A stretch of DNA of 64,000 bases from Pararhodobacter sp. (GTDB lineage Bacteria > Pseudomonadota > Alphaproteobacteria > Rhodobacterales > Rhodobacteraceae), in assembly GCA_020832805.1 (NCBI GenBank), contig JAFIED010000006.1, positions 15,336-79,335 of the forward strand, written 5' to 3'. A program made the translations under genes and the position numbers. A model generated the notes under the pieces. The model was not told the DNA's origin. It worked only from the letters and a program-made list of their open reading frames with translations, and did no database searches. Positions 11,843 through 38,436 of this stretch are shown here, in pieces (position 1 is the stretch's first letter; every line of letters starts with the position of its first letter).

Positions 11843-12628
11843 TTAGCGGCCCCTGAATACCGGCTTGCGCTTTTCCAGGAACGCCTTGGCGCCCTCTTGC
11901 TGATCCTCGGTGGAGAAGCACAGCGCAAAACTCTTGATCTCGGCCTGCAGCGCCGTGTCGGTATCGGCATGCATCGCCATGTTGAGCGAGGATTTCATCT
12001 GTGCCAGCGCAAAGGGCGGCATCTGTGCCAGTCGTCCGGTCAGGGCATCGGCCGCGCTGTCAAGCTCGGCTTCCGGATGCACCGCCGCCAACAGACCCAG
12101 ATCAAAGGCGCGCTGGGCCGTGATCGGCTCACCCAGCATGCATAGTTGCCGCGCAACAGATGACCCGGCGATCTTGGTCAGCCGCACGGTCCCGCCACCG
12201 CCGGGCAGGATACCCAGCTTGACCTCGGGCACGCCCAGTTTCGCACTGTCGGCGGCGATGCGGATGTCGCAGGCCAGCGCGATTTCCAAGCCGCCGCCCA
12301 GGCAGAACCCGTGGATCACGGCCACCACAGGCTTTGGGCTGGCCACGATGGCATCCATCGGCCGGCGGATGCGGGCGGCCATGGCCAGCGCATCGGGCGG
12401 CGTGGCACCGACGAAATCGGCAATGTCGGCGCCGGCAATAAAGGCCCGCTCGCCCGCCCCGCGCAACACGATCACCCGCACATCCGGGTCGGCCACCGCG
12501 CGGTCTACCGCCGCCGCCAGCCCCTCCAGCACGGCGGCATTCAGCGCGTTCAGCGCGTTTGGCCGGTTCACGGTGATCGTGGCGCAGGCATCGCCTGCAG
12601 CATAAAGCACCAGATCGGTATCGCTCAT
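11843..12628 (-). CDS. enoyl-CoA hydratase/isomerase (crotonase)
   Basis: NRPNALNALN, FIAGADI, GGGLEIALACDIR, PEVKLGILPGGGGT (both catalytic Glu present). Confidence 0.95.
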   Translation of the reverse strand: MSDTDLVLYAAGDACATITVNRPNALNALNAAVLEGLAAAVDRAVADPDVRVIVLRGAGERAFIAGADIADFVGATPPDALAMAARIRRPMDAIVASPKPVVAVIHGFCLGGGLEIALACDIRIAADSAKLGVPEVKLGILPGGGGTVRLTKIAGSSVARQLCMLGEPITAQRAFDLGLLAAVHPEAELDSAADALTGRLAQMPPFALAQMKSSLNMAMHADTDTALQAEIKSFALCFSTEDQQEGAKAFLEKRKPVFRGR

Positions 12629-12648
12629 CTGTTGTCTCCCGGTTTCGC

Positions 12649-13500
12649 TTACGCCTGCCGCCAGCCCGGCCGGCCACGCCCGCCCACCAGACCGGCCCGC
12701 ACGCGGGCCTTCAACAGCGGCCGGGGGCGGAAACGCTCGCCATAGGCGTCATGCATGATTTCCTGCGCCTGCAGGCAAAGGCTGGAGGTGGTGGCATCCA
12801 TCAGTTCGAACGGGCCCATCGGATGGCCCAGACCCAGCTTGCAGGCGGTGTCGATATCTTCGGGCGTGGCGACGCCTTCCTCGACCAGCCGCACGGCCTC
12901 GATCATCAGGACATGCAGCAGCCGATTGACCGCAAAGCCCGTCACATCCTTGATCGGCACCGGCTTCTTGCCCAGCGCCGCGCAGATTTCAAGCGTCTGC
13001 TTCAGCACCTCTGGCGCGGTGAAATGGCCCGGAATGACCTCGACCAGCTTCATGCGGCTGACCGGAGAGAAGTAATGCGTGCCGATGAACTGCGCGCGCC
13101 GCGCCTCGCTGACGTAAGACGCCAGCACGGTGATGGGGATGGTCGATGTGTTGGTGGCGATCACGCAGCCCGGCTTGCAATGCCTGTCCAGCGCGGCAAA
13201 GACCTCGGCCTTGACATCTTCGCGCTCGAACACGGCCTCGGTGACGAAATCGCAGTCGCCGAAATCGGCCAGGTCGGTGGTCGGCGTGATGCGGTCCAGC
13301 GCCGCGCGGTCGGCTTCGGCAAAGAGGTTGCGCGCAATGCCCTTGTCGATGATCGCTTGCAGGCGATCCAGCGCCGCGGCCAGTGCCTCGGTCGTACGGT
13401 CGTGCAGGCGCACCCGGTGGCCTGCCAACGCAAAGACCAGCGCGATCTCGCGCCCCATCAGCCCGGCGCCGACCACGCCGCATTGCATCGTATCGCTCAT
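12649..13500 (-). CDS. 3-hydroxyacyl-CoA dehydrogenase
   Basis: GAGLMG, EAVFE, ATNTSTI, GTHYFSPV, GFAVNR, GHPMGPFEL. Confidence 0.95.
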   Translation of the reverse strand: MSDTMQCGVVGAGLMGREIALVFALAGHRVRLHDRTTEALAAALDRLQAIIDKGIARNLFAEADRAALDRITPTTDLADFGDCDFVTEAVFEREDVKAEVFAALDRHCKPGCVIATNTSTIPITVLASYVSEARRAQFIGTHYFSPVSRMKLVEVIPGHFTAPEVLKQTLEICAALGKKPVPIKDVTGFAVNRLLHVLMIEAVRLVEEGVATPEDIDTACKLGLGHPMGPFELMDATTSSLCLQAQEIMHDAYGERFRPRPLLKARVRAGLVGGRGRPGWRQA

Positions 13501-13539
13501 GTCATTCCTCTTCCCTTGGAACTTTCGGGCGGAACTGCG

Positions 13540-14313
13540 TCAGCCCTCGGCCAGATAATCATGGATTACCACACCGGGGCCATGCGAAAAATCGAGCCGC
13601 GCAAAGCTGCCCCCAGTCAGGGCGGTCGGGCGCAACAGATGCAGCGGGTCGGCGGTCGACATGGCATCGAAGCTCAGCGAGGGGCGGCCGGTAAAGATCA
13701 TGGCAGAACCATCGGCGGCGCGGTGCGGTGTGGCATGCCCTTCAAGCCGGATCAGCTGCGCCAGGGCCGGGCGTTCGTTGGCGGCGTCAGGCAGAATCTT
13801 CAGCAACAGCGTGGGCAGTGGTGGGGTAGTGGGGGGCTCTGTCTGCCGGTCCATGACCAGCCCCAGCGTCATCAACCGCATGCCGCGCGGCCGTTCCAGC
13901 GTGGCGACCAGATGATCGGAAAACAGCCCGTCTGCCGAGCGCCAGCCGTGTTTCATGCGCGCCAGTTTCTTTGGCGTGCCCCATATCTCGCGCCCGGCAA
14001 TCAGGGGGCTTTCGTTATCGGTATAGGCCAGCAGCAGAAAGCGGTACTCCTGCCCCTCAAAGCGCACGGTCGCACTGACATAGGCTTCATGGTAGGGGCC
14101 ATGTACCGACAGCGGCACCCATCGGAATTTGGCCTGACAGACGACCGGGTCGCCCGCCGGCTCTACCCCGCGCGGCAGGAAGGGGCGCACGGCTTGCGCC
14201 GGCGCGGTGAAGCCCACCACCAGATCCTCTGCCCCGCGATAGGGGTGAGGAAAGGGCGGATAGGGCCGCGCCTCGCCCCAGGGCAGGCCCGCATCCTGAA
14301 AGCCGAACGCCAT
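13540..14313 (-). CDS. acetoacetate decarboxylase family protein
   Basis: GPYHEAYV, AGREIWGTPKK (Schiff-base Lys motif of the ADC family), LLLKILPD; start at MAFGF after GGGGGCGG RBS. Confidence 0.85.
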   Translation of the reverse strand: MAFGFQDAGLPWGEARPYPPFPHPYRGAEDLVVGFTAPAQAVRPFLPRGVEPAGDPVVCQAKFRWVPLSVHGPYHEAYVSATVRFEGQEYRFLLLAYTDNESPLIAGREIWGTPKKLARMKHGWRSADGLFSDHLVATLERPRGMRLMTLGLVMDRQTEPPTTPPLPTLLLKILPDAANERPALAQLIRLEGHATPHRAADGSAMIFTGRPSLSFDAMSTADPLHLLRPTALTGGSFARLDFSHGPGVVIHDYLAEG

Positions 14314-14321
14314 GCCGCCCC

Positions 14322-15329
14322 CTATCGCCTGAGGACCATCATCGAGGCGCTGATCAGCGCCAGGATCAACAGCACGCCCTGAACGATATACTGCCAGAAA
14401 CTGGGCACGCCCATCACCGACAGGCCGTTGTTGATGACCCCGATCATCAACACGCCAACCGCGGTGCCCAGCACATGGAACTTGCCGGGGCGCAGGGTCG
14501 ATGCGCCGATGAAAACCGCGACAAAGGCATTCAGCAGATAGGTCTCGCCCACGCCCTGCGGCCGCCCCGCGCCCAGGTTCGCCGCCGCAACCATGCCACC
14601 CAGCGCCGCGCAGGCGGCGCAGATGCCCATGGCGACCAGCGCGTAACGCTTGACCGGGATACCCGACAGGCGCGAGGCCTCCTTGTTGCCGCCGATGGCA
14701 TACATGTTGCGCCCCGGCTGGGTGTGTTCCAGAAACAGCCACAAGACAAGCGCCGTGGCGATCATGATCAGCACCGGGTTGGGAATGCCCGCGATATTGC
14801 CCTGTCCGATGATCTTGAACGCTGCCGGAATTTCAGTCGGCGAGATGGTGCGCGAACCGGAAATGCCCAGGATCACACCGGTCACGATGAAGCTCATCGC
14901 CAGGGTTTCAACGATGGCCGATATGCCAAGATAGGACACCAGCGCGCCGTTGATGATGCCGATGATCATGGCCATGAACAGCACCGCCAGCACCACGCCG
15001 GCCACCACCATCGGCGTTCCGTTTGCCGGGCCTATCTCCATCAGCATACGGGCCGCGACATAGCCGCCGAATGTGGCCAACGCGCCGATCGACAGATCGA
15101 ACTGGCCGATGACCAGGCAAACCGTCAGCCCGATGGCGATGATCCCCAGGATCGATACCTGGTTGAGCACGTTGAACATGTTGCGCATGGAGGGGAACAC
15201 TTCCGGGCGCATGAAGCTGAAGAATGCGATCAGCAGCACCAGCGACAGGATCGTTCCATAGCGCGCCAGAAAGTGCAGCAGGTCAAAGCCGGCGCCGGGT
15301 GCCGGGGCGGTTGCGTCAGTCTTGCTCAA
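14322..15329 (-). CDS. sugar ABC transporter permease (RbsC/CUT2 type)
   Basis: FDLSIGA, GRNMYAIGGNKEASRLSGI, AVFIGAS. Confidence 0.95.
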   Translation of the reverse strand: MSKTDATAPAPGAGFDLLHFLARYGTILSLVLLIAFFSFMRPEVFPSMRNMFNVLNQVSILGIIAIGLTVCLVIGQFDLSIGALATFGGYVAARMLMEIGPANGTPMVVAGVVLAVLFMAMIIGIINGALVSYLGISAIVETLAMSFIVTGVILGISGSRTISPTEIPAAFKIIGQGNIAGIPNPVLIMIATALVLWLFLEHTQPGRNMYAIGGNKEASRLSGIPVKRYALVAMGICAACAALGGMVAAANLGAGRPQGVGETYLLNAFVAVFIGASTLRPGKFHVLGTAVGVLMIGVINNGLSVMGVPSFWQYIVQGVLLILALISASMMVLRR

Positions 15330-16878
15330 GGCTCTCTCCCGCAGCGATTGTCATGATGTTGGCCTCGGTGACCTGTTCGTCGTGCAGCTCGCCCGCGATG
15401 CGGCCTTCGGAAAATACCAGCACGCGGCCACAGATGACCGGAAACTCCTCTACCTCGGTCGAGGTGAACAGCACCGACGCCCCGGCTGCCGCCAGTTCGG
15501 CGATCAGTTCATAGATTTCCGCCTTGGCGCCGACATCGACAGCCGCCGTCGGCGAATTCAGCAGAAAGACACGCGCCCCGGTGGTCAGCCAGCGGCCCAG
15601 CACGGCCTTTTGCTGGTTGCCGCCTGACAGCGCGTCGATCAGGGTTTCGGTGCCCGGCGTGCGCACATTCATGCGGGCGATCACATCGCGCGCCGCCGTT
15701 TTCTCTCGCCCGCCATGGACAAGCCGCAGGACCCGTTCGCGCAGGAACTGCGCCAGCGATGGAAGGGTGATGTTCTCGCGCACCGAATAGCCATGCAACA
15801 CCGCCTCGGCCAGGCGATCCTGTGGCACCAGCGCAAAGCCGGCACGGATCGCATCGGCGGGGTTGCGCAGCTTCAGCGGTGCTCCGTCCATGGAGATTTC
15901 GCCGCCCTCCAGGCGAGTGCGTCCGAACAGAAGGTTCAGAACTTCCTCGGCGCCGCTGCCCGGCAGACCGGCCACGCCCAGCACCTCGCCCGGGCGCAGG
16001 TCGAAACTGACCCCGTTTACCCTGGCCGCGTGCAGCCCCTTGACCGACAACAGCGCCGGCCCGTCTGCAACCGGGGTGATGTGCCGTTCGCGCAGCGCGG
16101 TCTCGGCGCCCACGATGGCCGATACCACGCTCTTGCGGTCCATCTTGTCCTTGTCAAAGGTGCCCGCATTGCGCCCGTCACGCAACACGGTCACGCGGTC
16201 GGCAATGTCGAATACCTCGGTCAGGCGATGACTGACATACAGAAAGGCCACCCCCCGCGATGCCAGAACGCGCATCTGGGCAAAAAGCGTCTCTACCTCG
16301 CGCGGCAACAGCGCGGCTGTCGGTTCGTCCAGGATGATCAACCGCGCCTTGCGGGCCACGGCGCGGGCAATGGCCACCATCGCCAACTGGTCCGGGCGCA
16401 GATCGGCGCACAGCTGGGCCGGGCTGATATCCAGGTCGACGGGAGACAACACGGCCCGTGCACGGCGCCGTACCTCTGGCCAGTCGATCAGCACGCCGCC
16501 GATACGCGGCAATGGCTCGCCCAGGCACAGGTTCTCTTCGACCGACAGTTCGGGAATGAGATTGGTATGCTGGTGCACCACGGCGATGCCCGCAGCCTGC
16601 GCCTCCTGCGGCGAGGTAATGCTGACCGGCTCACCGTCGATCAGCACCTCGCCGGCGGTGGCGGGCTGCGCGCCGCAGATGCATTTGATGATGGTAGACT
16701 TGCCAGCGCCATTTTCGCCCAGCAGCGCATGAATCTCGCCTGCGCGGACTGTCAGATCAACGTGATCAAGGGCCCGTGTACCGGGAAAATCCTTGATCAT
16801 CTGGCGGACTTCCAGCAGCGGCGGCGGCGCTACGGCGGAAGCGTGCGCCGCATCGGTGCGCGCTTGGGCAGCGATCAT
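15316..16878 (-). CDS. sugar ABC transporter ATP-binding protein (RbsA type, tandem ABC)
   Basis: GENGAGKST, ILDEPTA, LSGGNQQK, PTAAVDVGAK. Confidence 0.95.
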   Translation of the reverse strand: MIAAQARTDAAHASAVAPPPLLEVRQMIKDFPGTRALDHVDLTVRAGEIHALLGENGAGKSTIIKCICGAQPATAGEVLIDGEPVSITSPQEAQAAGIAVVHQHTNLIPELSVEENLCLGEPLPRIGGVLIDWPEVRRRARAVLSPVDLDISPAQLCADLRPDQLAMVAIARAVARKARLIILDEPTAALLPREVETLFAQMRVLASRGVAFLYVSHRLTEVFDIADRVTVLRDGRNAGTFDKDKMDRKSVVSAIVGAETALRERHITPVADGPALLSVKGLHAARVNGVSFDLRPGEVLGVAGLPGSGAEEVLNLLFGRTRLEGGEISMDGAPLKLRNPADAIRAGFALVPQDRLAEAVLHGYSVRENITLPSLAQFLRERVLRLVHGGREKTAARDVIARMNVRTPGTETLIDALSGGNQQKAVLGRWLTTGARVFLLNSPTAAVDVGAKAEIYELIAELAAAGASVLFTSTEVEEFPVICGRVLVFSEGRIAGELHDEQVTEANIMTIAAGESLEQD

Positions 16879-16941
16879 GGCGATCTGTCCTGTCTTTCAA
16901 GATGGACGGGGCGCGGCAGAAACCGCGCCCCGTTAACGCGC

Positions 16942-17919
16942 TTACTGCGCCGCGAATGCCTCGCCCGAAAAGAGCGTGCAATTGCCGAAGTCCGGGCGCT
17001 CGCCCTGTGCGGGCGCGGTATCCTGCGTCACCAGACAGGGCGCCAGCGTCAGAATGCGCGATGCCGGCGTTTCGCCACCCAGGGCCGCCTCGACCACGGC
17101 CACCGCAGTCGACCCCATGCGATCCACGTCATAGGCGACGGTCAGCGCGACCGGGCCACCACTGCGGATCATGTCGAACACTTCCGGAATGCCGTCCATC
17201 GACACCACGATGATGTCATCCTCGCGCCCGGCCTGCTCGATTGCGCGCACAACGGGGGCAACCAGTTCGTCCCAGCCGGTCCATACGGCGTCGATATCGG
17301 GATTGGCCAGCAGCAGGTTGGTCATCTGGTTGAAGGCATCATCCACCTGACCCGGCACACGCACCTCGATCTCGGTCACGCGCAGGTCCGGAAAGTCGCG
17401 CACGGTGGCGTGAAAGCCGTGATCACGTTCCCGCAGCGCAGGCAGCACGTTCCAGTTGAACTTGACGACATGGCCGCGCCCTTCAAGCCGGCCCATCAGT
17501 TCGGTGGTGGCGATCACCCCGTCAGCGGTGTTGTTCGACCCGATATCGGCAACGATCCCCGGTGCCAGCCCGGAAAAGGTGGAAACGAACGGGACGCCGC
17601 GCTCGGCGGCATAATCGATCACCTGGATCATCTGCGGGTTGGGCGAGGCGATGTTGATGATCGCGTCAAAACCCCGGTCGATGAAGGCCATGGCGGCGTT
17701 GTTGGTGGCGACCTGATCGCCGCGCCCGTCATAATCCTCGACCGTCCAGCCGCGTTCACGCGCAGCCTCGGTCGCGGTGACGACCTGGCGGTTGATGGAT
17801 GGCGAGTTGTAGTTGACCGCCACGATACCGACACGGATCTCGGCAAGCGCCGCCCCCGCCGACACGGACAGAGACAGCGCCGCTGCCGCTGCCGCAAATG
17901 CTTTCGCCTTGGTAGCCAT
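16942..17919 (-). CDS. sugar ABC transporter periplasmic substrate-binding protein (RbsB-like)
   Basis: signal peptide, RERDHGF, NPDIDAVW, VVSMDG; first gene of the operon. Confidence 0.9.
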   Translation of the reverse strand: MATKAKAFAAAAAALSLSVSAGAALAEIRVGIVAVNYNSPSINRQVVTATEAARERGWTVEDYDGRGDQVATNNAAMAFIDRGFDAIINIASPNPQMIQVIDYAAERGVPFVSTFSGLAPGIVADIGSNNTADGVIATTELMGRLEGRGHVVKFNWNVLPALRERDHGFHATVRDFPDLRVTEIEVRVPGQVDDAFNQMTNLLLANPDIDAVWTGWDELVAPVVRAIEQAGREDDIIVVSMDGIPEVFDMIRSGGPVALTVAYDVDRMGSTAVAVVEAALGGETPASRILTLAPCLVTQDTAPAQGERPDFGNCTLFSGEAFAAQ

Positions 17920-18129: not shown

Positions 18130-18155
18130 ATTGCACAACAAAATTGTAAAACAAT
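18130..18155. promoter_or_regulatory. tandem operator boxes (ATTGT-N3-ACAAT), site 1
   Basis: ATTGCACAACAAA + ATTGTAAAACAAT between the ABC operon and the phosphatase gene. Confidence 0.8.
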
Positions 18156-18234: not shown

Positions 18235-18978
18235 ATGGCACTTCGGCGCATACCGCTAAACGGGGCGGTCAACTTTCGTGACCTCGGCGGCTATCCGGTT
18301 GCGGGCGGCCGTCAGACACGCTGGCAACGGCTGTATCGCTCTGATTCGCTGGCGGAACTGGATGCCGACGATCTGGCCCGGCTTCAGGCGCTGGGCCTGC
18401 GCAGCCTGTGCGATTTCCGGCTGCCGGAAGAGGCCGCCAAGAAACCGAACCGGCTGCCCGATGGCCATGCCATCCAGCTGCATGCGATCGGCTTCATCCC
18501 GGAGGGGACGCTGGACATGCTGGCATCGGTCGGTGACGGGCGCCTGCCCGCGGCCGAGATCGAGGCCGAGGTGCTGCGCCATTACGGCAAGTTCATCCAC
18601 GATCACCAAACGGAATACCGGCGCTTTTTCGAACTCTTGCTGGATGACGCCAATCTGCCCCTGCTGGTGCATTGCACCTCGGGCAAGGATCGCACCGGCA
18701 TTGCCGCGGCGCTGGCCCTTCTGGCGCTGGGCGTTCCACGGGCAGAGGTGGTCAGGGATTACACCCTGACCAATGATTACCGGCGCGACATTGCCCATCT
18801 GTTCACCGGCGCAGTGGACCGGGGCGCACTGCAGGTGCTGACTACCGCCAACCCCCGTTACATCGAAAGGGCGCTGGATGAACTGGACAGCGCCTATGGC
18901 GGGATTGCCGGCTGGTTCGACACCGTGGGCCTGGGCCGCGCCGCATTGGATGACCTGCGCGCCCGGCTGACAGAATGA
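18235..18978 (+). CDS. tyrosine/dual-specificity phosphatase family protein (Y_phosphatase3, MptpB/IphP-like)
   Basis: NFRDLGGY, LYRSD, HCTSGKDRTG P-loop, DYTLTN. Confidence 0.92.
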   Translation: MALRRIPLNGAVNFRDLGGYPVAGGRQTRWQRLYRSDSLAELDADDLARLQALGLRSLCDFRLPEEAAKKPNRLPDGHAIQLHAIGFIPEGTLDMLASVGDGRLPAAEIEAEVLRHYGKFIHDHQTEYRRFFELLLDDANLPLLVHCTSGKDRTGIAAALALLALGVPRAEVVRDYTLTNDYRRDIAHLFTGAVDRGALQVLTTANPRYIERALDELDSAYGGIAGWFDTVGLGRAALDDLRARLTE

Positions 18979-19052: not shown

Positions 19053-19823
19053 TCAGGCGAATTTCACCTTCAACCGCTGACGAAACGCGTGATCGGTCAT
19101 GTTCAGCTGGATCGGGCAGACCGAGACCGCCTTGTCGCGAATCGCCTCCAGGTCGGTGCCGGGGTCAAAGCCGCCATCGGTATAGGCCAGCTTGATCCAG
19201 TAATAGGGCACATCCCGCCCATCAACGCGCCGGTCCGGCAGGAAAGACCCCGGCGGGCGCTGCCCCTGCGCCACAACCCGCACGCCGGTCACCTGATCGG
19301 GCATGGCATCGGGGAAGTTGATGTTGACGAAACTGCCCGGCTGCCATTCGGTGGCCAGCAGGGTTTCCAGAATCTGCGGCGCAAAGGCCTCGGCCGTTTC
19401 CCAGGGGACGTGGGCGCGCGGGGTAAATACCTGGCTCAGCGCCACCGAAGGCACCCCCAGCAACGCCCCCTCCATCGCCGCCGCCGCGGTGCCGGAATAG
19501 GTGACATCCTCGGCAAGGTTGGCGCCCCGGTTGATACCTGACAGCAGGATGGTCGGCTTCTCGGGCATGAGTTCGTGTATCGCCAGCAGCGCACAATCGG
19601 TCGGTGTACCCTTGACCGCAAAATGACGGTCATCGATCTTGCGCGCCCGTACCGGGATATGCATTGATATCGAATGCGAGGCACCGGATTTCTCTTCATC
19701 CGGGGCGACAACCCAGACATCATCGGTAAAGCGCCTTACAAGGGTTTCAAGCAGTTTGATCCCCTCGGCATGAATGCCATCGTCGTTCACGATCAGCACA
19801 CGGTGCTTGCTGGCGTCGGTCAT
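19053..19823 (-). CDS. surE: 5'/3'-nucleotidase SurE family phosphatase
   Basis: NDDGIHAEG, VVAPDEEKSGASHS, GTPTDC, SGINRGAN, YSGTAAAAMEG. Confidence 0.93.
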   Translation of the reverse strand: MTDASKHRVLIVNDDGIHAEGIKLLETLVRRFTDDVWVVAPDEEKSGASHSISMHIPVRARKIDDRHFAVKGTPTDCALLAIHELMPEKPTILLSGINRGANLAEDVTYSGTAAAAMEGALLGVPSVALSQVFTPRAHVPWETAEAFAPQILETLLATEWQPGSFVNINFPDAMPDQVTGVRVVAQGQRPPGSFLPDRRVDGRDVPYYWIKLAYTDGGFDPGTDLEAIRDKAVSVCPIQLNMTDHAFRQRLKVKFA

Positions 19824-19872: not shown

Positions 19873-19898
19873 ATTATATGACAATCTTGTCCTACAAA
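19873..19898. promoter_or_regulatory. tandem operator boxes, site 2
   Basis: ATTATATGACAAT + CTTGTCCTACAAA between divergent surE and thiolase. Confidence 0.75.
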
Positions 19899-19941
19899 CA
19901 TGAGGAGCACAACCCGGTTCCATCCGGGCAAGGGGGGAAAG

Positions 19942-22733: not shown

Positions 22734-22758
22734 TTGTTCGACAATTTTGTATGAGACT
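22733..22758. promoter_or_regulatory. tandem operator boxes, site 3
   Basis: ATTGTTCGACAAT + degenerate TTTGTATGAGACT, immediately followed by TTGACA (-35-like, 22761) upstream of the core operon. Confidence 0.75.
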
Positions 22759-25218: not shown

Positions 25219-25247
25219 GCCCCGGCCGCTTGCTCCCCGGCCGGGGC
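25219..25247 (+). other. intra-operon GC-rich hairpin (attenuator or mRNA stabiliser)
   Basis: GCCCCGGCCG-N9-CGGCCGGGGC followed by CTTT after the 518-aa gene. Confidence 0.4.
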
Positions 25248-29196: not shown

Positions 29197-29224
29197 CCGG
29201 CGTTTTCAGACAAGCGAGGCCCGC

Positions 29225-29767: not shown

Positions 29768-29770
29768 GCC

Positions 29771-31150
29771 ATGCCTGTCAAACGCCTTTTCGTGGCCAAC
29801 CGTGGCGAGATCGCCCTGCGCATCCTGCGTTCGGCCCGCGCGATGGGAATCGAGACGGTGCTGGGCGTTTCGGCTGCCGACCGCGAGGGCGCCGGGCCTG
29901 AGGCAGCAGACCGCGTGGTGGTGCTGGGTCCGGCACCCTCGGCCAAAAGCTATCTGGACCCGCGCCTGATCGTCCATGCCGCCGCCGCCACTGGCTGCGA
30001 CGCGCTGCATCCGGGCTATGGGTTCCTGTCCGAAAAACCCGAGCTGGCGCGCCTGTGCGAGGAAGAGGGCATCGCCTTTGTCGGCCCGCGCCCCGAAACC
30101 ATCGAGGCGCTGGGCGACAAGATGTCAGCCCGCGCCATGGCCATTGCTGCGGGTGTGCCCATCGTACCGGGCACCGATCACATCGCCGATCTGGACAGCG
30201 CGCGAAAGGCAGCGGCGGAATTGGGCTATCCGGTGGTGATGAAGGCCTCGGCCGGCGGCGGCGGGCGCGGCATGTTCAAGGCGGCCAGTGAGGCCGAACT
30301 GAACGCCTCGTTCGAGAGCGCCTCGCGCGCGGCGCAGGCGGCCTTTGGCGACAGCCGGCTTTACATGGAGCGTTTCGTCGAGGCAGCGCGCCATGTCGAG
30401 GTGCAGGTCATCGGCGACGGCGAGGGGGGCGTGCTGCATTTCGGCGAGCGTGACTGTTCCGTGCAGCGCCGATACCAGAAGCTGATCGAGGAAGCGCCCG
30501 CCAGCGCCATGCCCGACGCGCTGCGCACCCGCCTGCACGAAGCCGCCATCCGCATCTGTGCCCATGCCCGCTACCGCAATGCCGGCACGGTGGAATTCCT
30601 GTACGACGTGGCGCGGCAGGACATCTATTTCATCGAGGTCAATTCCCGCATCCAGGTCGAACACCCCGTGACCGAGGAGATCACCGGCATCGACCTGATT
30701 GCCTGCCAGCTGAAGGTCGCGGGCGGCGATGCGCTGGGCCTGACACAGGCTGATATCCGCCCCGCCGGCCATGCCATCGAGGTGCGCATCAACGCCGAGG
30801 ACCCGTTCGCCGATTTCCGCCCCTCGCCCGGGCGCATCACGGGCTGGGAACCGCCACGGGGGCCGGGCGTGCGGCTGGATAGCCACGCGCGCGCGGGTTA
30901 TCTGGTGCCCCCCTTTTACGACTCGATGATCGGCAAGCTGATCGTGCATGGCCATGACCGGGCCCAGGCCATCGACCGCCTGTTGCAGGCCATTGCCGAT
31001 TTCCGGCTGGAAGGGCCGCAGACCACGCTGCCGCTGGCTGCGCACATCCTGGACCACCCCGACTTTCGTGCAAACACATTCACGACCCGCTGGCTGGAGG
31101 ATCGGGTATTGCCCGATTTCGCCGCCGAGCGCCGTGCTGATGCCCCCTGA
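29771..31150 (+). CDS. biotin carboxylase subunit (AccC-like)
   Basis: ANRGEIA, HPGYGFLSE, GGGGRGM, ERDCSVQRR, EVNSRIQVEHPVTE, YDSMIGK. Confidence 0.96.
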   Translation: MPVKRLFVANRGEIALRILRSARAMGIETVLGVSAADREGAGPEAADRVVVLGPAPSAKSYLDPRLIVHAAAATGCDALHPGYGFLSEKPELARLCEEEGIAFVGPRPETIEALGDKMSARAMAIAAGVPIVPGTDHIADLDSARKAAAELGYPVVMKASAGGGGRGMFKAASEAELNASFESASRAAQAAFGDSRLYMERFVEAARHVEVQVIGDGEGGVLHFGERDCSVQRRYQKLIEEAPASAMPDALRTRLHEAAIRICAHARYRNAGTVEFLYDVARQDIYFIEVNSRIQVEHPVTEEITGIDLIACQLKVAGGDALGLTQADIRPAGHAIEVRINAEDPFADFRPSPGRITGWEPPRGPGVRLDSHARAGYLVPPFYDSMIGKLIVHGHDRAQAIDRLLQAIADFRLEGPQTTLPLAAHILDHPDFRANTFTTRWLEDRVLPDFAAERRADAP

Positions 31151-31164
31151 AGGAGAACGCCCCG

Positions 31165-32625
31165 ATGCATGTCGAATTCCTGGACGAAACCATCCGTGAT
31201 GGCCAGCAAAGCCTGTGGGGCATGCAGATGCAGGCCGGTATGGCGCTGCCCGTCACCCCGCTGCTGGACCGTACCGGCTTTCGGGTGATCGATCTGGCAG
31301 GCTCGTCGATGATGGAGGTGCTGATCAAGCGGTGCCGCGAAAACCCGTGGGAGGGGCTGGATCTGCTGGTGCAGTCGATGCCGCGCACACCCATTCGCGG
31401 CGGCATGCGCTCGAACGCCTCGGTCACCTTCGGCGTCACGCCGGATGCGCTGATGGATGCCTGGATGCGGCAGCTCAATCGCCACGGGGTGCGCAGCTTC
31501 TGGATCTATGATGTGCTGTTCAACATCCCCCAGACCCACCGGCTGGCCAAGGTCGCCAAGGAATTCGGGTCCGAGGTGGCGGGGGCGATCATGTTCACCC
31601 TCTCGCCCGTCCATACGGATGAATACTATGCCGACAAGGCCGACAAGCTGTCGGCCAGCCCCGATATCGACACGCTCTTGCTGTATGATACCGCCGGCAC
31701 GCTGGACAAGGACCGGCTGAAAACCCTGTTGCCCGCCATCGTGGCCAAGGCGCGCGGCAAGCCCATCGAGTTCCATTCCAACAACATCCTGGGCATGTCG
31801 GCCAAGGCCTATCTGGACAGCCTGGAACTGGGCGTCACCATCCTGCACACCGCCTCGCGCCCCATGGCGAACGGGCCGTCCACCCCGTCGACCGAGATCA
31901 TGGTCAAGAACATCGAGCTCAAGGGCTATACCCACAATCTGGACAAGAGCCTGTTCAAGCCGGTGGCCGATCATTTCGAGGCCGTAGGCAAGGCAGCCGG
32001 CTATCTGGTCAACCAGTACAACGAATACGACATCCTGTCGATCGAACACCAGATTCCCGGCGGGATGACCGGCACGCTGAAGGCACAGCTGGCCCAGCAC
32101 GGCATGTCCGACAAGCTGGATCAGGTGCTGGCCGAGACCGCCGAGGTGCGGCGCGAACTGGGCTATCCGGGCATGGCAACGCCCTTCAGCCAGCTTGTCG
32201 GCACGCTGGCGGTGCTGAACATCGTCACCGGCAAGCGCTATTCGGTGATCCCGGACGAGGTCATCCAGTATGCCGCCGGTTTTTATGGCGAGACGGTCGC
32301 GCCCATCGACCCGAATGTTCTGGACCGCATCATGGCATCGCCCCGCGCCAAGGAGGTCGTCGCCAACCCGCCCGAACAGCCCACCATCGAGGAATTGCGC
32401 AAGCGCTACGGCACCGACAACGATGACGAGTTGATCCTGCGCGCGCTGGTGCCAGAGGCCGATCTGGAACGGATGTGGGCGGCGGGGCCGGTGAAAACCA
32501 CCTATCCGCTGCTGTCCTCGCCCGAACTGGATCAGGTGCGCCGGTTGATGCGCGTGGCCCGCGCGCCGGTGGTGCAGATCAAGTCCTCGCTGATGAACCT
32601 GTCGCTCAAGCGTCATTCGGCCTGA
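31165..32625 (+). CDS. carboxyltransferase subunit, pyruvate carboxylase B / oxaloacetate decarboxylase alpha family (divergent)
   Basis: DETIRDGQQSL, HQIPGGM, RRELGYPGMATPFSQLVG; metal-ligand motifs altered (YDTAG, HSN). Confidence 0.9.
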   Translation: MHVEFLDETIRDGQQSLWGMQMQAGMALPVTPLLDRTGFRVIDLAGSSMMEVLIKRCRENPWEGLDLLVQSMPRTPIRGGMRSNASVTFGVTPDALMDAWMRQLNRHGVRSFWIYDVLFNIPQTHRLAKVAKEFGSEVAGAIMFTLSPVHTDEYYADKADKLSASPDIDTLLLYDTAGTLDKDRLKTLLPAIVAKARGKPIEFHSNNILGMSAKAYLDSLELGVTILHTASRPMANGPSTPSTEIMVKNIELKGYTHNLDKSLFKPVADHFEAVGKAAGYLVNQYNEYDILSIEHQIPGGMTGTLKAQLAQHGMSDKLDQVLAETAEVRRELGYPGMATPFSQLVGTLAVLNIVTGKRYSVIPDEVIQYAAGFYGETVAPIDPNVLDRIMASPRAKEVVANPPEQPTIEELRKRYGTDNDDELILRALVPEADLERMWAAGPVKTTYPLLSSPELDQVRRLMRVARAPVVQIKSSLMNLSLKRHSA

Positions 32626-32628
32626 GCC

Positions 32629-34237: not shown

Positions 34238-35020
34238 TTACTGCCGCGCCGTCGTGCCGCCATCGATCACCAGCACCGTGCCGTTGCAATAGCTTGCCTC
34301 GTCCGACGCCAGATACAGGCAGCCATGGGCCATCTCCTCGGGCGTGCCGGGGCGTTTCATCGGGGTCAGGCTGTCGGCCACCGCCGGATCGTCGAACAGG
34401 TTCAGCACCGAAGCCACCATCGGCGTGGCAATGAAGCCGGGCGCGATGCAGTTGGTGCGGATGTTGTCGCCCGCATAGGCCACGCACATCGCCCGCGTCA
34501 GATTGATCATGCCGCCTTTGGCCGCGCAGTAGGTATGCGCTGCGGGCAGCCCCTGAAAGCCGGAAATCGAGGCGACATGCACGATCGACCCGCCGCCCTG
34601 CTTCTTCATCTGCCGCACCGCCAGTTTCGAAATCAGGAAACAGGCGGTCAGGTTGATGTTCAGCACCTCGTTCCATTTCTCCAGCGAGGTCTCGGCGATG
34701 TCATTCATCGACCCGGGGCTTTTTTCCATCCAGCTGTAGCCCACGCCTGCGGCATGAACCACGATGTCCACGCGGCCGTGCCTGCTCAGCGCGGCCTGGA
34801 AAGCGGCCTCGGCGTCGGCCTCGGTGGCCAGATCGGCAGCGTGGTAATCGGCCTCGCCTCCTGCCGCGCGCACCAGTTCGACCGTCTCGCGCAGGTTCGC
34901 CTCGGTGCGTGACACGCCGAATACCTTGCCCCCCTCCCGGGCAAAGATCTGCATCGCCGCCCGCCCCACGCCGGTCCCAGCCCCGGCGATGAAGACAACC
35001 TTGTCCTGAACACGTCCCAT
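34238..35020 (-). CDS. SDR family oxidoreductase
   Basis: GAGTGVG, YCAAK catalytic motif, NCIAPG, IDGG. Confidence 0.93.
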   Translation of the reverse strand: MGRVQDKVVFIAGAGTGVGRAAMQIFAREGGKVFGVSRTEANLRETVELVRAAGGEADYHAADLATEADAEAAFQAALSRHGRVDIVVHAAGVGYSWMEKSPGSMNDIAETSLEKWNEVLNINLTACFLISKLAVRQMKKQGGGSIVHVASISGFQGLPAAHTYCAAKGGMINLTRAMCVAYAGDNIRTNCIAPGFIATPMVASVLNLFDDPAVADSLTPMKRPGTPEEMAHGCLYLASDEASYCNGTVLVIDGGTTARQ

Positions 35021-35069
35021 GGGTTCCTCCCTCAAGTACCCTGTGCCAAAAAGCTTGACACCCTCCAGA

Positions 35070-35108
35070 ATCGTAAGACTAGATTGTTTTACAATATCGC
35101 ACAACAAT
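35070..35108. promoter_or_regulatory. tandem operator boxes (three units), site 4
   Basis: ATCGTAAGACTAG + ATTGTTTTACAAT + ATCGCACAACAAT between divergent SDR and Zn-ADH; TTGACA at 35055. Confidence 0.8.
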
Positions 35109-35154
35109 ATGGCACGTCCGGTTGGCGATTTGGCACATCGGAGGGGGAGACGAC

Positions 35155-36195
35155 ATGAAGGCAGCAATATTCAAGGGGCTGGGCCACAAGCTGGCGATCG
35201 AGGAGCGCCCGCGCCCGGTGGCGGGGCCGGGGCAGGTGGTGTTGCGCGTCGCGGCCTGTGGCATCTGCGGCTCGGACCTGCATGCCACACAGGAAGGCGT
35301 GTTCCTGATGCCTGACGGCACCGTGCTGGGGCACGAATTTTCCGGCGAGGTGGTGGAAAGTACCGATGACGCCTTTGCGCCCGGCGATCGGGTTACGGCG
35401 CTGCCGGTCAATGCCTGCGCCGACCCGGCCTGTCAGGCGCTGGGCCGCTGCAAGGATGATCTGGGCATTCGCTGCCCGCAGAACCGCATCACCGGGCTGG
35501 CACTGGATGTGCCCGGCGCCTATGCCGATTATGTGGCGGTTGGCGCCCGGCAGGCGGTGCGCCTGCCGGAAAATGTCAGTTACGACGAGGGCGCGCTGGT
35601 CGAACCGCTGGCGGTGGGGCTGCATGCGGTGCGCAAATCCGGCCTCGGCCCCGGTGCACGCGTGCTGGTCATCGGCGCCGGGCCGATCGGCCTGTCGGTG
35701 GCGGCCTTTGCCCGCCACGCCGGCGCCCGCGCCGTGGTGGTCAGCGAGATGAACGCCACCCGCCGCGCGCTGGCACAGACCATGGGCGCGCATGCCGTCA
35801 TCGACCCGGCCGCGCATGATGAGCTGGGCGCCGCCTTTGCCGATGCCGCCGGCGGGCCGCCCGATGTGATCTTCGAATGCGTGGGGGTGCCGGGCCTGAT
35901 CCAGCAGTGCATCGACCTGTCACAACCGCTGGGCAAGATCGTGGTGGTGGGCGTGCTGATGAAAGAAGACACCATCGTGCCGATCTCGGCCATCCTGAAG
36001 GAGTTGTCGATCCAGTTCGTGCTTGGCTATGTCGACGAGGATTTCGAGATCGTGCTGGATGCCCTGGCCTCAGGCGCCATCGACGCGAAGCCGATGATTT
36101 CGCAGCGCGTCAGTCTGGACGAATTGCCCGACGCGTTCGAGGCGTTGCGCCGGCCCAGCACGCAGGTCAAGGTGCTGATCACGCCGGGCACCTGA
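35155..36195 (+). CDS. zinc-binding alcohol dehydrogenase (sorbitol/butanediol DH-like)
   Basis: CGICGSDLH, GHEFSG, EPLAVG, GAGPIG. Confidence 0.93.
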   Translation: MKAAIFKGLGHKLAIEERPRPVAGPGQVVLRVAACGICGSDLHATQEGVFLMPDGTVLGHEFSGEVVESTDDAFAPGDRVTALPVNACADPACQALGRCKDDLGIRCPQNRITGLALDVPGAYADYVAVGARQAVRLPENVSYDEGALVEPLAVGLHAVRKSGLGPGARVLVIGAGPIGLSVAAFARHAGARAVVVSEMNATRRALAQTMGAHAVIDPAAHDELGAAFADAAGGPPDVIFECVGVPGLIQQCIDLSQPLGKIVVVGVLMKEDTIVPISAILKELSIQFVLGYVDEDFEIVLDALASGAIDAKPMISQRVSLDELPDAFEALRRPSTQVKVLITPGT

Positions 36196-36236
36196 CGTGA
36201 CAGATCATGGGGCGGCCGAAACCGGCCGCCCGCTGT

Positions 36237-36977
36237 TCAGGCGCTCAGGTTTGCGCCGCCGTTAACATAGACCACCTGCCCCGTAATGAACTCGGCCTCG
36301 GGGCTGGCCAGGAATTTCATCAGGTTGGTATAGTCCTCGGCCTGCACACCGCGCCCGGACGGGTTGCTTTGTGCCGAATGGGCCACCAGATCGCCGGCCT
36401 TGGCGCCGAAAAGCTGTCGCACCGCATCTGTCTCGACGATAGAGGGCGCGACGCAGTTGATACGGATGCCACGCGGCGCCAGTTCGACCGCCAGATAACG
36501 CACCAGACTTTCCGACAACGCCTTGCCGACGCCGATGGCGGCATAGTTTTCCACCACGATCCGCCCGCCCCGGCTGGTCAGAAAGAACACCGTGCTGCCG
36601 CGGTCCATCAGGTCAAGGGTTGCCTGAACCAGGAACAACAGCGATGGCCCGTTGGTGATGATCGCGCGGGTAAAACGCGCCGGGTCAGCGTTCAGCACCG
36701 GGCTGGCGTAAGCATCGACGGCACAATGCACCACCTGTTCCAGCCGCGCCCCGGCCGCGCGCACCGCCTCGGCCATCGCCGCGCAACCCTCGGGCGTGCC
36801 CGCATCGGCCTTGATCAGCACGACCCTGGCGCCGGTTGCTGCAACTTCCGCCTGCGCAGCCTCGGCCGCCGCCTGATCACCGTGATAATTCAGAAAGACC
36901 GTGCGGTCCGGCCCGGAAAACGCCTTGCCGATTTCCAGCCCTATGCCCTTTGTGCCCCCGGTAACAAGTATCGCCAT
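36237..36977 (-). CDS. SDR family oxidoreductase (FabL-like enoyl reductase)
   Basis: TGGTKGIG, Y-x6-K (YAAIGVGK), YLAVELAPRGIRINCV. Confidence 0.88.
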   Translation of the reverse strand: MAILVTGGTKGIGLEIGKAFSGPDRTVFLNYHGDQAAAEAAQAEVAATGARVVLIKADAGTPEGCAAMAEAVRAAGARLEQVVHCAVDAYASPVLNADPARFTRAIITNGPSLLFLVQATLDLMDRGSTVFFLTSRGGRIVVENYAAIGVGKALSESLVRYLAVELAPRGIRINCVAPSIVETDAVRQLFGAKAGDLVAHSAQSNPSGRGVQAEDYTNLMKFLASPEAEFITGQVVYVNGGANLSA

Positions 36978-36995
36978 GATTGCCTCCCTGACATC

Positions 36996-37021
36996 ATTGT
37001 AGAACAATCATGTCGGACGAT
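36996..37021. promoter_or_regulatory. tandem operator boxes, site 5
   Basis: ATTGTAGAACAAT + CATGTCGGACGAT just upstream of the SDR start. Confidence 0.8.
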
Positions 37022-37069
37022 CAGGGGCAATGCAATGCCAAAGCTCATACCCTGCCCCAACAGGCGGGT

Positions 37070-37747
37070 TCAGGATTGCGCAAAGGCCTCTTCCGGCAGT
37101 CTGGTCAGCAGGATGCGGGTACGGCGGATGTGAATCTGCATCAGCCTGTCAGCCCGGTTGCGGTTGCCGGCAAGGATTGCCTCGGTGATGGCGGCATAAT
37201 CCTCGAACTGTTTTTCACGGTGTTCATGGGTCAGGTAGGACTGGAATTGCAAGCGCAGCAGATGGATCTGCATCAGCGGCATCAGGCGCGTGACCTCGGC
37301 ATTCTCTGCAATGCGGATCAGCAAATCGTAATAGTCCCGCCGCTCTTTCAGCAGCGCCATGAAATCGCTGTTCTCGCGCACCGCAGACAGTTGCGCGAAC
37401 TGGGTTTGCAGCGCGGCGTGGTTGTCACCCTTGTCGATGTTATGCGCAGCCAGCCGGGCCACCAGACCGACCAGCACCTCCAGCACGATCAACGTGTCAT
37501 GCACCTCGCTGCGCGAAAGGGCACGGATATAAGCCCCACGATGACGATTCAGCGTGACCAGACCCTCGGCCGCAAGCCGCTTCAGCGCCTCGCGCACGGG
37601 GCCGCGGCTGACCCCGAGGTTGCGCGTCAGATCCGCTTCGACCAGCCGCTGCCCCGGCACCATGCGCCCGGAATAGACGCCAGAAACAATCGCCTCGACC
37701 ACAAGTTCGGGCGAACTGAGCGTTGGGCGGGTCTCGACGATATTCAT
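37070..37747 (-). CDS. GntR family (FadR/FCD) transcriptional regulator
   Basis: PGQRLVEADL..LGVSRGPVREALKRLAAEGLV wHTH plus helical FCD domain. Confidence 0.95.
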   Translation of the reverse strand: MNIVETRPTLSSPELVVEAIVSGVYSGRMVPGQRLVEADLTRNLGVSRGPVREALKRLAAEGLVTLNRHRGAYIRALSRSEVHDTLIVLEVLVGLVARLAAHNIDKGDNHAALQTQFAQLSAVRENSDFMALLKERRDYYDLLIRIAENAEVTRLMPLMQIHLLRLQFQSYLTHEHREKQFEDYAAITEAILAGNRNRADRLMQIHIRRTRILLTRLPEEAFAQS

Positions 37748-37886
37748 GTGGCTCACTCCTGAAGCAGGGCCCAAACCGGATTTCCAGCCAGAACGTAAAG
37801 GAAAGATACACCCGGCGCGCGCTGCACTGCCTCTATGGCGAAATGCCCGGCCCTTCAACCGAATACCCTACCATATTGGCGGCATT

Positions 37887-37912
37887 TTTGTCGAACGATA
37901 TTGTCCTTCAAT
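37887..37912. promoter_or_regulatory. tandem operator boxes, site 6 (possible autoregulation)
   Basis: TTTGTCGAACGAT + ATTGTCCTTCAAT between divergent gntR and DUF3237 gene. Confidence 0.7.
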
Positions 37913-37965
37913 TCTGTTTCGTCTTTGATTGGTATCCTTGTTAGCACGATCTGGAAGGAAGCGAC

Positions 37966-38436
37966 ATGATCAAGGACATGCTGCCACTGCAGACCCGCCC
38001 GCTGATGATCCTGACAGCCATTCTGGACGCACCACAGCGTCTGGGCCAGACCCCGCAGGGTGACAGAAAGATCGTGCCAGTGCTGGGCGGCACCGTAGCC
38101 GGCGAACGGATCACCGGCACCGTGCTGCCCGGCGGCGGGGACTGGGCGCTGACAAGGCCGGACGGCGTTTTGCTGCTGGATGTCCGGCTGACGATCCGCA
38201 CCGATGACGGCGCCCTGATACACATGACCTATGACGGCATGCGCCACGGCTCGGCCGATGTGATGGCACGTCTGGCCGCGGGCGAGCATGTGCCACCGGA
38301 TGCCATGTATTTTCGCATTGCGCCCCGATTTGAAACTGGCGCACAGCGCTATGACTGGATGAACGGCATCCTGGCCGTCGGCATTGGCGAGCGGTTGCCC
38401 GAGGGCCCGCGCTATCATGTTCACGAAGTGCTGTAG
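37966..38436 (+). CDS. DUF3237 domain-containing protein
   Basis: GTVLPGGGDW, LDVRLTIRTDDGALI, YFRIAPRFETG..YDWMN. Confidence 0.9.
   Translation: MIKDMLPLQTRPLMILTAILDAPQRLGQTPQGDRKIVPVLGGTVAGERITGTVLPGGGDWALTRPDGVLLLDVRLTIRTDDGALIHMTYDGMRHGSADVMARLAAGEHVPPDAMYFRIAPRFETGAQRYDWMNGILAVGIGERLPEGPRYHVHEVL

Follow-up and report, generated by a model that had tools for sequence, protein, structure and literature searches.

A conserved gene cluster of Pararhodobacter sp. probably encodes kinase-primed biotin carboxylation with a VadK-like dikinase

The kinase-primed biotin carboxylation of ketones was found only in 2022 and is now engineered for lignin valorisation. In Rhodococcus rhodochrous GD02 it is encoded by the hpeHICBADEF genes; the dikinase HpeHI phosphorylates 4-hydroxyacetophenone and acetovanillone, the biotin carboxylase HpeCBA carboxylates the phosphorylated ketone only and HpeD takes the phosphate off (PMC9618137). 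AcvAB, AcvCDE and AcvF (acvABCDEF and vceAB) follow the same route in Sphingobium sp. SYK-6 (bioRxiv 10.1101/2022.04.28.489975), and a single-chain replacement kinase of the acetovanillone pathway, MarK, was described in 2025 (PMC12624787). The three-subunit biotin carboxylase XccABC of Aromatoleum aromaticum EbN1, which was proposed to act on 4-hydroxyacetophenone ahead of a ligase and a thiolase, is a HpeCBA homologue, and homologues of hpeHI adjoin xccABC itself (PMC9618137). Here we describe a block of genes at positions 11843–38436 of a 64,000-nucleotide stretch of Pararhodobacter sp. DNA (contig JAFIED010000006.1 of assembly GCA_020832805.1; hereafter, the window), in which a truncated pyruvate, phosphate dikinase (PPDK) and a three-subunit biotin carboxylase are encoded in one operon, and which probably specifies a pathway of this kind.

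Other described systems resemble parts of the block. PpsABC of Thauera and CreHI of Corynebacterium are split dikinases of the PEP-synthase family that phosphorylate a small molecule other than pyruvate at the start of a catabolic route; they belong, like HpeHI, to the rifampin-phosphotransferase-like branch (PMC12167813), and the next enzyme in their routes is a UbiD-type carboxylase or a P450 and not a biotin enzyme. Acetone and acetophenone carboxylases (Acx, Apc) also convert a methyl ketone into a beta-keto acid at the expense of ATP, but they are hydantoinase-family enzymes without biotin or phospho-His and are unrelated in sequence. Acetone carboxylase is thought to proceed via phosphoenol-acetone. 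As regards the kinase, the relevant protein is VadK (Rv1127c), which is needed for the virulence of Mycobacterium tuberculosis, phosphorylates itself on His422 and is co-purified with Rv1126c, its partner in the operon; a role as regulatory histidine kinase with protein partners, tied to the methylcitrate cycle, has been proposed for it (PMC13400623).

Open reading frames (ORFs) were called by GC3 guidance and the proteins scanned against Pfam and NCBIfam. Each of the 25 genes listed for the block in an earlier note on this DNA was present. The block lies between the genes for DegP (10133–11761) and MetH (38573–42367). It starts with a minus-strand operon for a substrate-binding protein (SBP), a double ABC ATPase, a permease, an acetoacetate-decarboxylase-family (ADC) protein, a hydroxyacyl-CoA dehydrogenase (HADH) and a crotonase. 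There follow a Y_phosphatase3 enzyme (PTP) and a SurE-type phosphatase, each with a separate promoter, an SCP-type thiolase with CoA ligase 1, and a ten-gene core operon with intergenic gaps of −8 to 75 bp. The core operon encodes, in this order, a 249-aa swivel protein, a 518-aa protein (hereafter named U518), CoA ligase 2, a 201-aa protein, the 606-aa PPDK, biotin carboxyl carrier protein (BCCP), biotin carboxylase (BC), carboxyltransferase (CT), a thiolase and an EthD protein. Downstream of it are a short-chain dehydrogenase (SDR1), a polyol-type Zn-dependent alcohol dehydrogenase (Zn-ADH), SDR2, a GntR/FCD regulator and a DUF3237 protein. Catalytic motifs are intact in the PPDK (GGSTSH, His445), the swivel protein (GGSTRSH, His192), BCCP (VMKL) and PTP (CX5R, C173).

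By gene content, the block shares with Hpe and Acv an ATP-dependent His-swivel dikinase, a three-subunit biotin carboxylase, a dedicated phosphatase, a CoA ligase and a C-C cleavage that gives acetyl-CoA, encoded together in a single inducible cluster. The earlier note knew of no described pathway that joins a split dikinase to an Xcc-type biotin carboxylase; Hpe, Acv and MarK are such pathways. Its phrase "undescribed catabolic system" is therefore no longer apt for the logic, known since 2022, and still applies to the type of kinase, to the CT clade and to the substrate, which are new; when the block was compared with characterised pathways, the match extended to logic and not to orthology. 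Judged from sequence, then, the pathway logic is a known one and most of the parts are non-orthologous to those of Hpe/Acv. The cluster would be a third version of the phosphorylate, biotin-carboxylate and cleave route, with an uncharacterised kinase, CT clade and substrate. Full-text literature searches returned no paper on exactly this cluster; a paper on acetovanillone cometabolism in strain RHA1 was set aside as unrelated.

The differences were examined using an acv-type cluster from Rhizobium plasmid pRlBT01c (L092), an hpe-type cluster from Rhodococcus JS3073 and MarK-type clusters from two bisphenol-A degraders. The Hpe/Acv dikinase is a two-component PpsAB/RPH-like enzyme in which HpeH/AcvA (~600 aa) carries the substrate-binding and swivel domains and HpeI/AcvB (~350 aa) is the ATP-grasp protein. 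The block enzyme is not of this type: ATP-grasp and swivel lie on one PPDK-like chain, accompanied by three extra proteins. In the acv-type cluster, U518 had no BLAST match, the swivel protein was matched only in its swivel part (28%), and the short PPDK was 24% identical to the AcvB-type ATP-grasp protein. PpsABC and CreHI likewise have no U518 or 201-aa component. Where Hpe and Acv use an AcsA-like ligase and a hydrolase, the block has a FadD-like ligase and a thiolase; no HAD-family phosphatase was found in it by Pfam, the Y_phosphatase3 and SurE proteins standing instead, and it has no aromatic context. MarK, a UPF0261/Tm-1-like protein of Novosphingobium aromaticivorans, is a case in which the kinase was swapped for an unrelated one and the carboxylase kept; it differs from the block enzyme in being a single chain with no phospho-His swivel.

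The short PPDK aligned only to residues 2–537 of the 873-aa Clostridium PPDK, with its last ~90 aa unmatched. It has the PPDK_N domain and a swivel with the catalytic His and lacks the PEP/pyruvate TIM barrel, which is the architecture of VadK. By architecture and motif it can be likened to the VadK/Rv1126c pair, in which the gene of a shortened PPDK, made up of an ATP-binding domain and a swivel with its His, adjoins a small partner gene; that pair stands alone in M. tuberculosis, whereas here it is found inside a catabolic operon together with a second swivel, U518 and a carboxylase. This is the first catabolic context for a truncated PPDK of the VadK/Rv1126c type, and it offers two concrete candidates, the swivel protein and U518, for the kind of partner that such kinases serve. 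The NCBIfam model NF004531 scored 697.7 bits on the short PPDK; it was rejected as a marker of the short form because full-length PPDKs of five control genomes also pass it. In the swivel protein, the GGxxRSH motif is invariant. The 201-aa protein, putatively Rv1126c-like as labelled in the earlier note, had no match in Pfam, NCBIfam or the PDB sequences. Its AlphaFold2 model (pLDDT 96.4) showed a weak match of the N-terminal ~70 aa to winged helix-turn-helix (wHTH) folds, the helical domain being unmatched.

U518 belongs to no Pfam or NCBIfam family; 177 of its residues are invariant across bacterial classes. With the AlphaFold2 model (pLDDT 74.7, pTM 0.81) as query, nothing usable was retrieved from the PDB by Foldseek (best E 0.3), by a wide VIA-align search (Z ≤3.3) or from the ESM Atlas (TM ≤0.26 in the shape search, no usable match in the feature search); at the pLDDT of this query such null searches do not prove a new fold. 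U518 represents a highly conserved, enzyme-like family without a detectable structural relative. Natural fusions indicate with what it works: a swivel domain is fused to a U518-like one in P0171, P0195 and P0261, and a domain like the 201-aa protein (44–47% identity) forms the C-terminus of U518 relatives in P0121 and P0124. A complex of U518 and the swivel protein was modelled with an ipSAE of 0.87, compared with 0.00 for the best of three controls; 58 of 80 solved complexes came up to this value, and so did 2 of 110 mismatched pairs, counts that are rough since own alignments were used. The runs agreed in at least 77% of contacts, with a partner pLDDT of at least 87. Swivel residues 190–192, His192 included, lie in the modelled interface, on whose U518 side invariant residues are over-represented (36 of 64, 22 expected, p 9e-5). 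The model supports binding of U518 to the swivel protein without showing it. We read the four proteins as a candidate dikinase in which U518 would take the place of the substrate-binding barrel.

A three-subunit carboxylase made up of BCCP with its biotinyl-Lys motif, BC and a pyruvate-carboxylase-type CT stands beside this kinase. When CT was aligned with 2nx9 and 5ks8, Asp12 of the metal site was found to be kept, whereas Tyr174 replaces the carbamyl-Lys (KDMAG) and H204-S-N206 the HxH motif, so that the canonical site of pyruvate carboxylase, OadA and 5S-type subunits (Asp, carbamyl-Lys, HxH) is not complete. The altered residues are invariant in 57–58 of 58 orthologues; the CTs of Acv, MarK and Caballeronia type keep both carbamyl-Lys and HxH. 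In a maximum-likelihood tree, which contained type examples from the fetched clusters and not HpeA and XccA themselves, the PPDK-linked CTs formed a clade of their own (98/96) and those of Acv, Hpe and MarK type a separate one (100/99), the CTs of the MarK clusters grouping with the Acv type. The block CT thus falls outside the HpeA/AcvE/XccA clade, and it shares 36–38% identity with Acv/Hpe/MarK-type CTs. Both clades are united in one larger clade (starred) apart from OadA. The altered metal site raises a mechanistic question, namely whether the phosphate serves as a handle or an enol phosphate is the substrate.

Several other carboxylase clusters were encountered. The MarK-type plasmid clusters of Sphingomonas bisphenolicum AO1 (pBAR1, L089) and Pseudomonas putida YC-AE1 (L090) contain a Tm-1-like ATP-binding protein, BCCP, BC, CT and a HAD phosphatase; that of AO1 adjoins a carotenoid-oxygenase-family gene and an aldehyde dehydrogenase gene, which fits 4-hydroxyacetophenone coming from bisphenol A. 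On pNK84 of Caballeronia sp. NK8 (L091), CT-accB-accC genes without a kinase accompany acetoacetate decarboxylase, saccharopine-dehydrogenase-like, carbonic anhydrase and bioA genes; this CT diverges basally to the kinase-linked clades and may be another type of ketone carboxylase. A Sulfitobacter faviae plasmid (L104) carries accB-accC-CT beside genes for a TRAP transporter, a CoA transferase and a protein like citryl-CoA lyase, also without a kinase, and its CT sits on a long branch.

The genes of the block are tied together by a palindromic operator, ATTGTNNNACAAT (ATTGT-N3-ACAAT). Seven matches with at most one mismatch were found in the window (0.61 expected), a number reached in none of 100 shuffles. 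Once gene starts were corrected, six operator-bearing promoter regions serve all the transcription units of the block, including that of the repressor. In five of the six, a second copy (weaker or offset, two mismatches) lies exactly 13 bp beside the first; in the remaining region, upstream of the swivel gene, the adjoining 13-mer is more degenerate. Genome-wide, that is, in a 3.7-Mb Rhodobacteraceae assembly about 90% complete, there are five perfect palindromes, four of them in the block, and none for the reversed control. The fifth (contig C45:12622-12634), within a 261-aa ORF, is probably a chance occurrence. Across Alpha- and Gammaproteobacteria, 40 of 77 related loci have the operator in the 400 bp ahead of the swivel gene, against 0.02 expected per 400 bp; this site is a phylogenetic footprint. 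The regulator combines a wHTH and an FCD domain, and the palindrome stands in the target promoters and in its own, as in regulons of the GntR/FadR subfamily. The palindrome agrees with the pattern of the FadR subfamily, TNGT-N3-ACNA, and the GntR/FCD repressor is presumed to bind ATTGT-N3-ACAAT. The operator counts, positions and conservation support the earlier proposal that the block is one regulon under one repeated operator.

A seventh operator-like site, ATAGTATAACAAT, with one mismatch, is found at 54911–54923, 16 kb outside the block, between a histone-deacetylase-family gene (53831–54922, minus strand) and another Zn-ADH gene (54966–56075, plus strand), and may mark a distal member of the regulon.

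U518 relatives are encoded in 398 species representatives and are 63–96% identical across classes; the core (swivel, U518, ligase, 201-aa, short PPDK, BCCP, BC, CT and thiolase genes) is conserved in Alpha- and Gammaproteobacteria and on Rhodococcus plasmids; about 400 species representatives carry it, bacteria of soil, fresh water, the sea, sponges and soda lakes. Synteny was counted on the best 80 loci, 54 of which had at least 8.5 kb downstream. Among these 54, CT was present in 54, the 201-aa gene in 53, PPDK in 52, BCCP and BC in 51 each and thiolase in 50, and ligase 2 at ≥50% identity in 44. The co-occurrence of dikinase-like and carboxylase genes in other genomes, on which the original proposal had been made to depend, was hence observed almost without exception. 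Plasmid pRB98 of Rhodococcus oxybenzonivorans has the same gene set at 41–54% identity plus a DUF35/SCP-thiolase pair and a PTP gene; the PTP relative of the Rhodococcus orthologous cluster is 35% identical to that of the block. A sugar-type importer is syntenic in Rhodobacteraceae, Roseiarcus and Rhizobiaceae loci. Within the genus of the window, only 2 of 24 other genomes carry the cluster, which marks it as an accessory island. Since a second surE gene is present in the same genome on contig C248, the SurE of the block is a cluster-specific paralogue. Contigs of a pond metatranscriptome were 90–95% identical over the swivel, U518, ligase 2, 201-aa and BC/CT genes, which is weak evidence that the operon of a relative is transcribed in nature; depth was derived from contigs, so that expression cannot be ranked and uncovered bins carry no meaning.

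The gene order and content vary in some relatives. In an unannotated stretch of pSA1 of Novosphingobium resinovorum SA1 (L087) the same parts are shuffled: U518 directly precedes BCCP-BC-CT-ligase-SCP thiolase, followed by SurE, and the swivel, 201-aa and PPDK genes form a separate unit. A group of Rhodospirillales-like metagenome-assembled genomes (L033–L066; L058:2398-3171, L059:4676-8157) has a Liv-type (Peripla_BP_6) importer in place of the sugar-type one; because the ADC-family gene again adjoins it, the link between ADC and importer holds across transporter families. In Sphingosinicella xenopeptidilytica a biotin synthase gene (radical SAM + BATS; L080:19912-20913) directly follows the core operon, and acyl-CoA dehydrogenase, old yellow enzyme (OYE), SDR, HADH, crotonase and GntR genes lie upstream of it.

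Taken together, the block probably encodes a kinase-primed biotin carboxylation pathway. As to how the phosphate is used, a Hpe-like mechanism in which a hydroxyl group is phosphorylated and the phosphate acts as a handle has about an even chance of being correct; in its favour are PTP, which is kept all the way from Rhodococcus to Rhodobacteraceae, and SurE, a second copy in this genome. The ABC importer would take up the compound, and Zn-ADH or the SDRs might oxidise a secondary alcohol to a hydroxy-ketone bearing a CH3-CO- group. The barrel-less PPDK, with the 201-aa protein as its partner, would then autophosphorylate His445 from ATP, as was shown for its relative VadK. From there, to judge by the fusions and the complex model, the phosphoryl group could pass to His192 of the swivel protein docked on U518, which would bind the substrate and move the phosphate to its hydroxyl. 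By analogy with HpeCBA, BC, BCCP and CT would carboxylate the methyl beside the carbonyl, yielding a phosphorylated beta-keto acid. The phosphate could be taken off by the PTP-type phosphatase, the SurE-type one or both; ligase 2 might next form the beta-ketoacyl-CoA, to be cleaved by the thiolase into acetyl-CoA and an acyl-CoA, the latter passing onward through the crotonase, the hydroxyacyl-CoA dehydrogenase, the SCP-type thiolase and ligase 1. The order of import, alcohol oxidation, phosphorylation, biotin carboxylation, CoA ligation and thiolysis put forward in the earlier note agrees with the gene content.

Our best guess for the substrate, held with low confidence, is an aliphatic hydroxy-ketone of small size (resembling acetoin, acetol or a deoxy-ketose) rather than a phenolic ketone, to judge from the beta-oxidation genes nearby, the ADH of polyol type and the importers for hydrophilic solutes. 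Across loci, the core is neighboured by genes for acyl-CoA dehydrogenase, crotonase, hydroxyacyl-CoA dehydrogenase, thiolases and OYE and by bioB, and in the PDB Zn-ADH comes closest to (R,R)-butanediol, sorbitol and ketose dehydrogenases. Beside the core, in the window and the loci examined, there was no sign of pobA, van, pca or ring-cleavage genes. Other proteins were uninformative on the substrate: the closest PDB matches of SBP are distant ribose and sugar binders of low similarity, the nearest solved relatives mark SDR1 as generic and SDR2 as FabL-like, and the NCBIfam names of the ligases and thiolases are generic. The description of the block as a catabolic regulon that is repressed by GntR and serves a small ketone or the alcohol preceding it, and in which a known phosphorylate, carboxylate, dephosphorylate and cleave logic is carried out by new parts, is one that we regard as evenly poised between true and false.

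Some findings sit badly with the phosphate handle. Two gammaproteobacterial groups have the cluster without a phosphatase gene, which a handle would need, and one of them is also without a ligase gene; a HAD phosphatase lies beside CT in all the fetched Acv, Hpe and MarK clusters. CT has lost two metal ligands that Acv-type CTs retain, and hence may not work like HpeA. Two swivel histidines, His445 and His192, are present in one system without an explanation. U518 has no recognisable fold or motif, for which reason its acceptor role is argued from the fusions and the model. Importers also change with the lineage (CUT2, Liv-type, MacB/FtsX, EamA), and a sugar-type transporter consequently says little about the substrate.

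Part of this evidence would be accounted for if the kinase had retained the chemistry of PPDK and turned a plain methyl ketone without a hydroxyl (acetone, butanone, 2-alkanones or isoprenoid ketones) into its enol phosphate, just as PEP arises from pyruvate. CT would carboxylate the enolate arising from P-O cleavage via carboxybiotin, the phosphate being freed, and the phosphatases would clear stray intermediates. Kinase and CT both descend from enzymes acting on the CH3-CO- of pyruvate; the carbamyl-Lys and the one His that CT lacks (Tyr174, Asn206) belong to the metal site that promotes pyruvate enolisation; the minimal gammaproteobacterial operon lacks a phosphatase; the neighbours in Sphingosinicella and Steroidobacteraceae are those of aliphatic beta-oxidation (acyl-CoA dehydrogenase, crotonase, HADH, thiolase, OYE); and an SDR is nearly always present. 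However, an enol phosphate is not known as a substrate of any biotin enzyme, HxH is retained in the Rhodococcus orthologue, PTP is kept over the same distance as noted above while a dedicated SurE paralogue is widespread, and the alphaproteobacterial clusters carry hydrophilic-solute importers. We consider this route unlikely, if still a serious contender. In its fullest form it would be new chemistry: a four-protein, PPDK-derived dikinase would make the enol phosphate of an unactivated methyl ketone, the metal-altered CT would couple P-O cleavage to carboxyl transfer from carboxybiotin, U518 would take the place of the PPDK barrel with a new fold, and VadK/Rv1126c would be a stripped-down remnant of this catabolic kinase. 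That whole set of claims is rather unlikely; if true, the chemistry would combine the logic of PEP carboxylase with that of biotin carboxylases.

The cluster could also be a functional Hpe/Acv system for phenolic ketones of the 4-hydroxyacetophenone or acetovanillone type, with a non-orthologous kinase and phosphatase swapped in. The order of steps is identical, MarK demonstrates that nature has already replaced the kinase once, the conserved phosphatase is of the tyrosine-phosphatase family, for which aryl phosphates are textbook substrates, and the cluster resides on catabolic megaplasmids of Rhodococcus and Novosphingobium. Nevertheless, aromatic lower-pathway genes were not seen by the core in the window and the loci examined, where the neighbours belong to beta-oxidation or encode an ADH of polyol type and importers of sugar or Liv type; CT, at the identity given above, lies outside the clade of the Acv/Hpe/MarK-type enzymes, and a thiolase stands for the hydrolase and a FadD-like ligase for the AcsA-like one. 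We hold such a function to be improbable. Finally, the VadK-like module might be regulatory, phosphorylating a protein such as the carboxylase or another pathway enzyme to tune flux, while the carboxylase uses an unphosphorylated substrate. A regulatory role with protein partners is what the sole experimental study of the family proposes (PMC13400623), and the 201-aa protein has a winged-helix domain. The four kinase-module genes are, however, embedded in the catabolic operon and translationally coupled with it, and U518 is conserved like an enzyme; catalysis fits better with the near-perfect co-occurrence with CT, the dedicated phosphatases and the precedent of Hpe, in which the phospho-substrate is required. 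A regulatory module therefore seems highly improbable, and the carboxylation of a phosphorylated ketone remains the preferred reading.

The features of the block are listed in Table 1. For some genes the start of the first ORF was overlong; the likely starts are ~14313 for ADC, 18235 for PTP, ~35020 for SDR1, 35155 for Zn-ADH and ~37747 for GntR.

Table 1. Genes and operator sites of the block, with positions in the window
Feature	Position	Strand	Evidence and remarks
Crotonase (enoyl-CoA hydratase), final gene of the importer operon	11843..12628	-	Pfam ECH_1 2.8e-63; 20-bp gap to HADH
3-Hydroxyacyl/3-hydroxybutyryl-CoA dehydrogenase	12649..13500	-	Pfam 3HCDH_N/3HCDH, NCBIfam; 53-63% relatives in several loci
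Acetoacetate-decarboxylase-family protein	13540..14382 (start probably ~14313)	-	Pfam ADC 4.1e-33
CUT2 (ribose-type) ABC importer	14322..17919	-	Pfam Peripla_BP_4, ABC_tran x2, BPD_transp_2
Importer parts	SBP 16942-17919; double ATPase 15316-16878; permease 14322-15329	-	
Tandem operator pair, divergent SBP and PTP promoters	18130..18155		
Tyrosine-phosphatase-family (Y_phosphatase3) enzyme, PTP	18235..18978	+	Pfam 2.8e-64; CX5R at C173
SurE-type phosphatase	19053..19823	-	NCBIfam SurE above cut-off; syntenic at 53-95% in many loci
Tandem operator pair, divergent SurE and thiolase promoters	19873..19898		
SCP-x/lipid-transfer-type thiolase and CoA ligase 1 (FadD-like)	19900-21183; 21180-22733	+	4-bp overlap; Pfam Thiolase_C_1, AMP-binding; NCBIfam
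Operator before the core operon	22733..22745		Perfect palindrome, 126 bp upstream
249-aa putative phospho-His carrier	22859..23608	+	N-terminal docking domain + PEP-utilizers swivel (His192); Pfam
U518, 518-aa family-less protein	23645..25201	+	Proposed substrate/acceptor subunit of the kinase
CoA ligase 2 (FadD-like)	25277..26764	+	Pfam AMP-binding
201-aa protein	26778..27383	+	Winged-helix N-domain + helical domain; 8-bp overlap with PPDK gene
Barrel-less PPDK (VadK-like)	27376..29196	+	ATP-grasp + swivel His445; Pfam PPDK_N + PEP-utilizers
Three-subunit biotin carboxylase	29189..32625 (BCCP 29189-29767; BC 29771-31150; CT 31165-32625)	+	Pfam/NCBIfam
3-Ketoacyl-CoA thiolase and EthD-domain protein	32629-33813; 33827-34126	+	Pfam; TIGR01930 above cut-off
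SDR 1	34238..35020	-	Pfam adh_short; 47-72% relatives, mostly in gamma loci
Tandem operator pair, divergent SDR1 and Zn-ADH promoters	35083..35108		
Zn-dependent polyol-type dehydrogenase	35155..36195	+	Pfam ADH_N/ADH_zinc_N
SDR 2 (FabL-like)	36237..37008	-	Operator 36996-37008 just upstream of start; 58-74% relatives in alpha loci
GntR/FCD repressor	37070..37747	-	Pfam GntR+FCD; 43-58% relatives in many loci
Tandem operator pair, divergent GntR and DUF3237 promoters	37887..37912		Autoregulation
DUF3237 protein	37966..38436	+	Pfam 1.8e-45; adjoins GntR in other loci too

The flanks of the window (urease, AMP nucleosidase, Dxs, metH and DegP genes) gave no hint. An ordinary urease operon (ureG/E/C/D and neighbours) is located at 42387–48391, downstream of metH, and is followed by the AMP nucleosidase and Dxs genes. 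Within the core operon, a GC-rich inverted repeat at 25219–25247, between the genes of U518 and ligase 2, may be an attenuator or an mRNA-stabilising hairpin.

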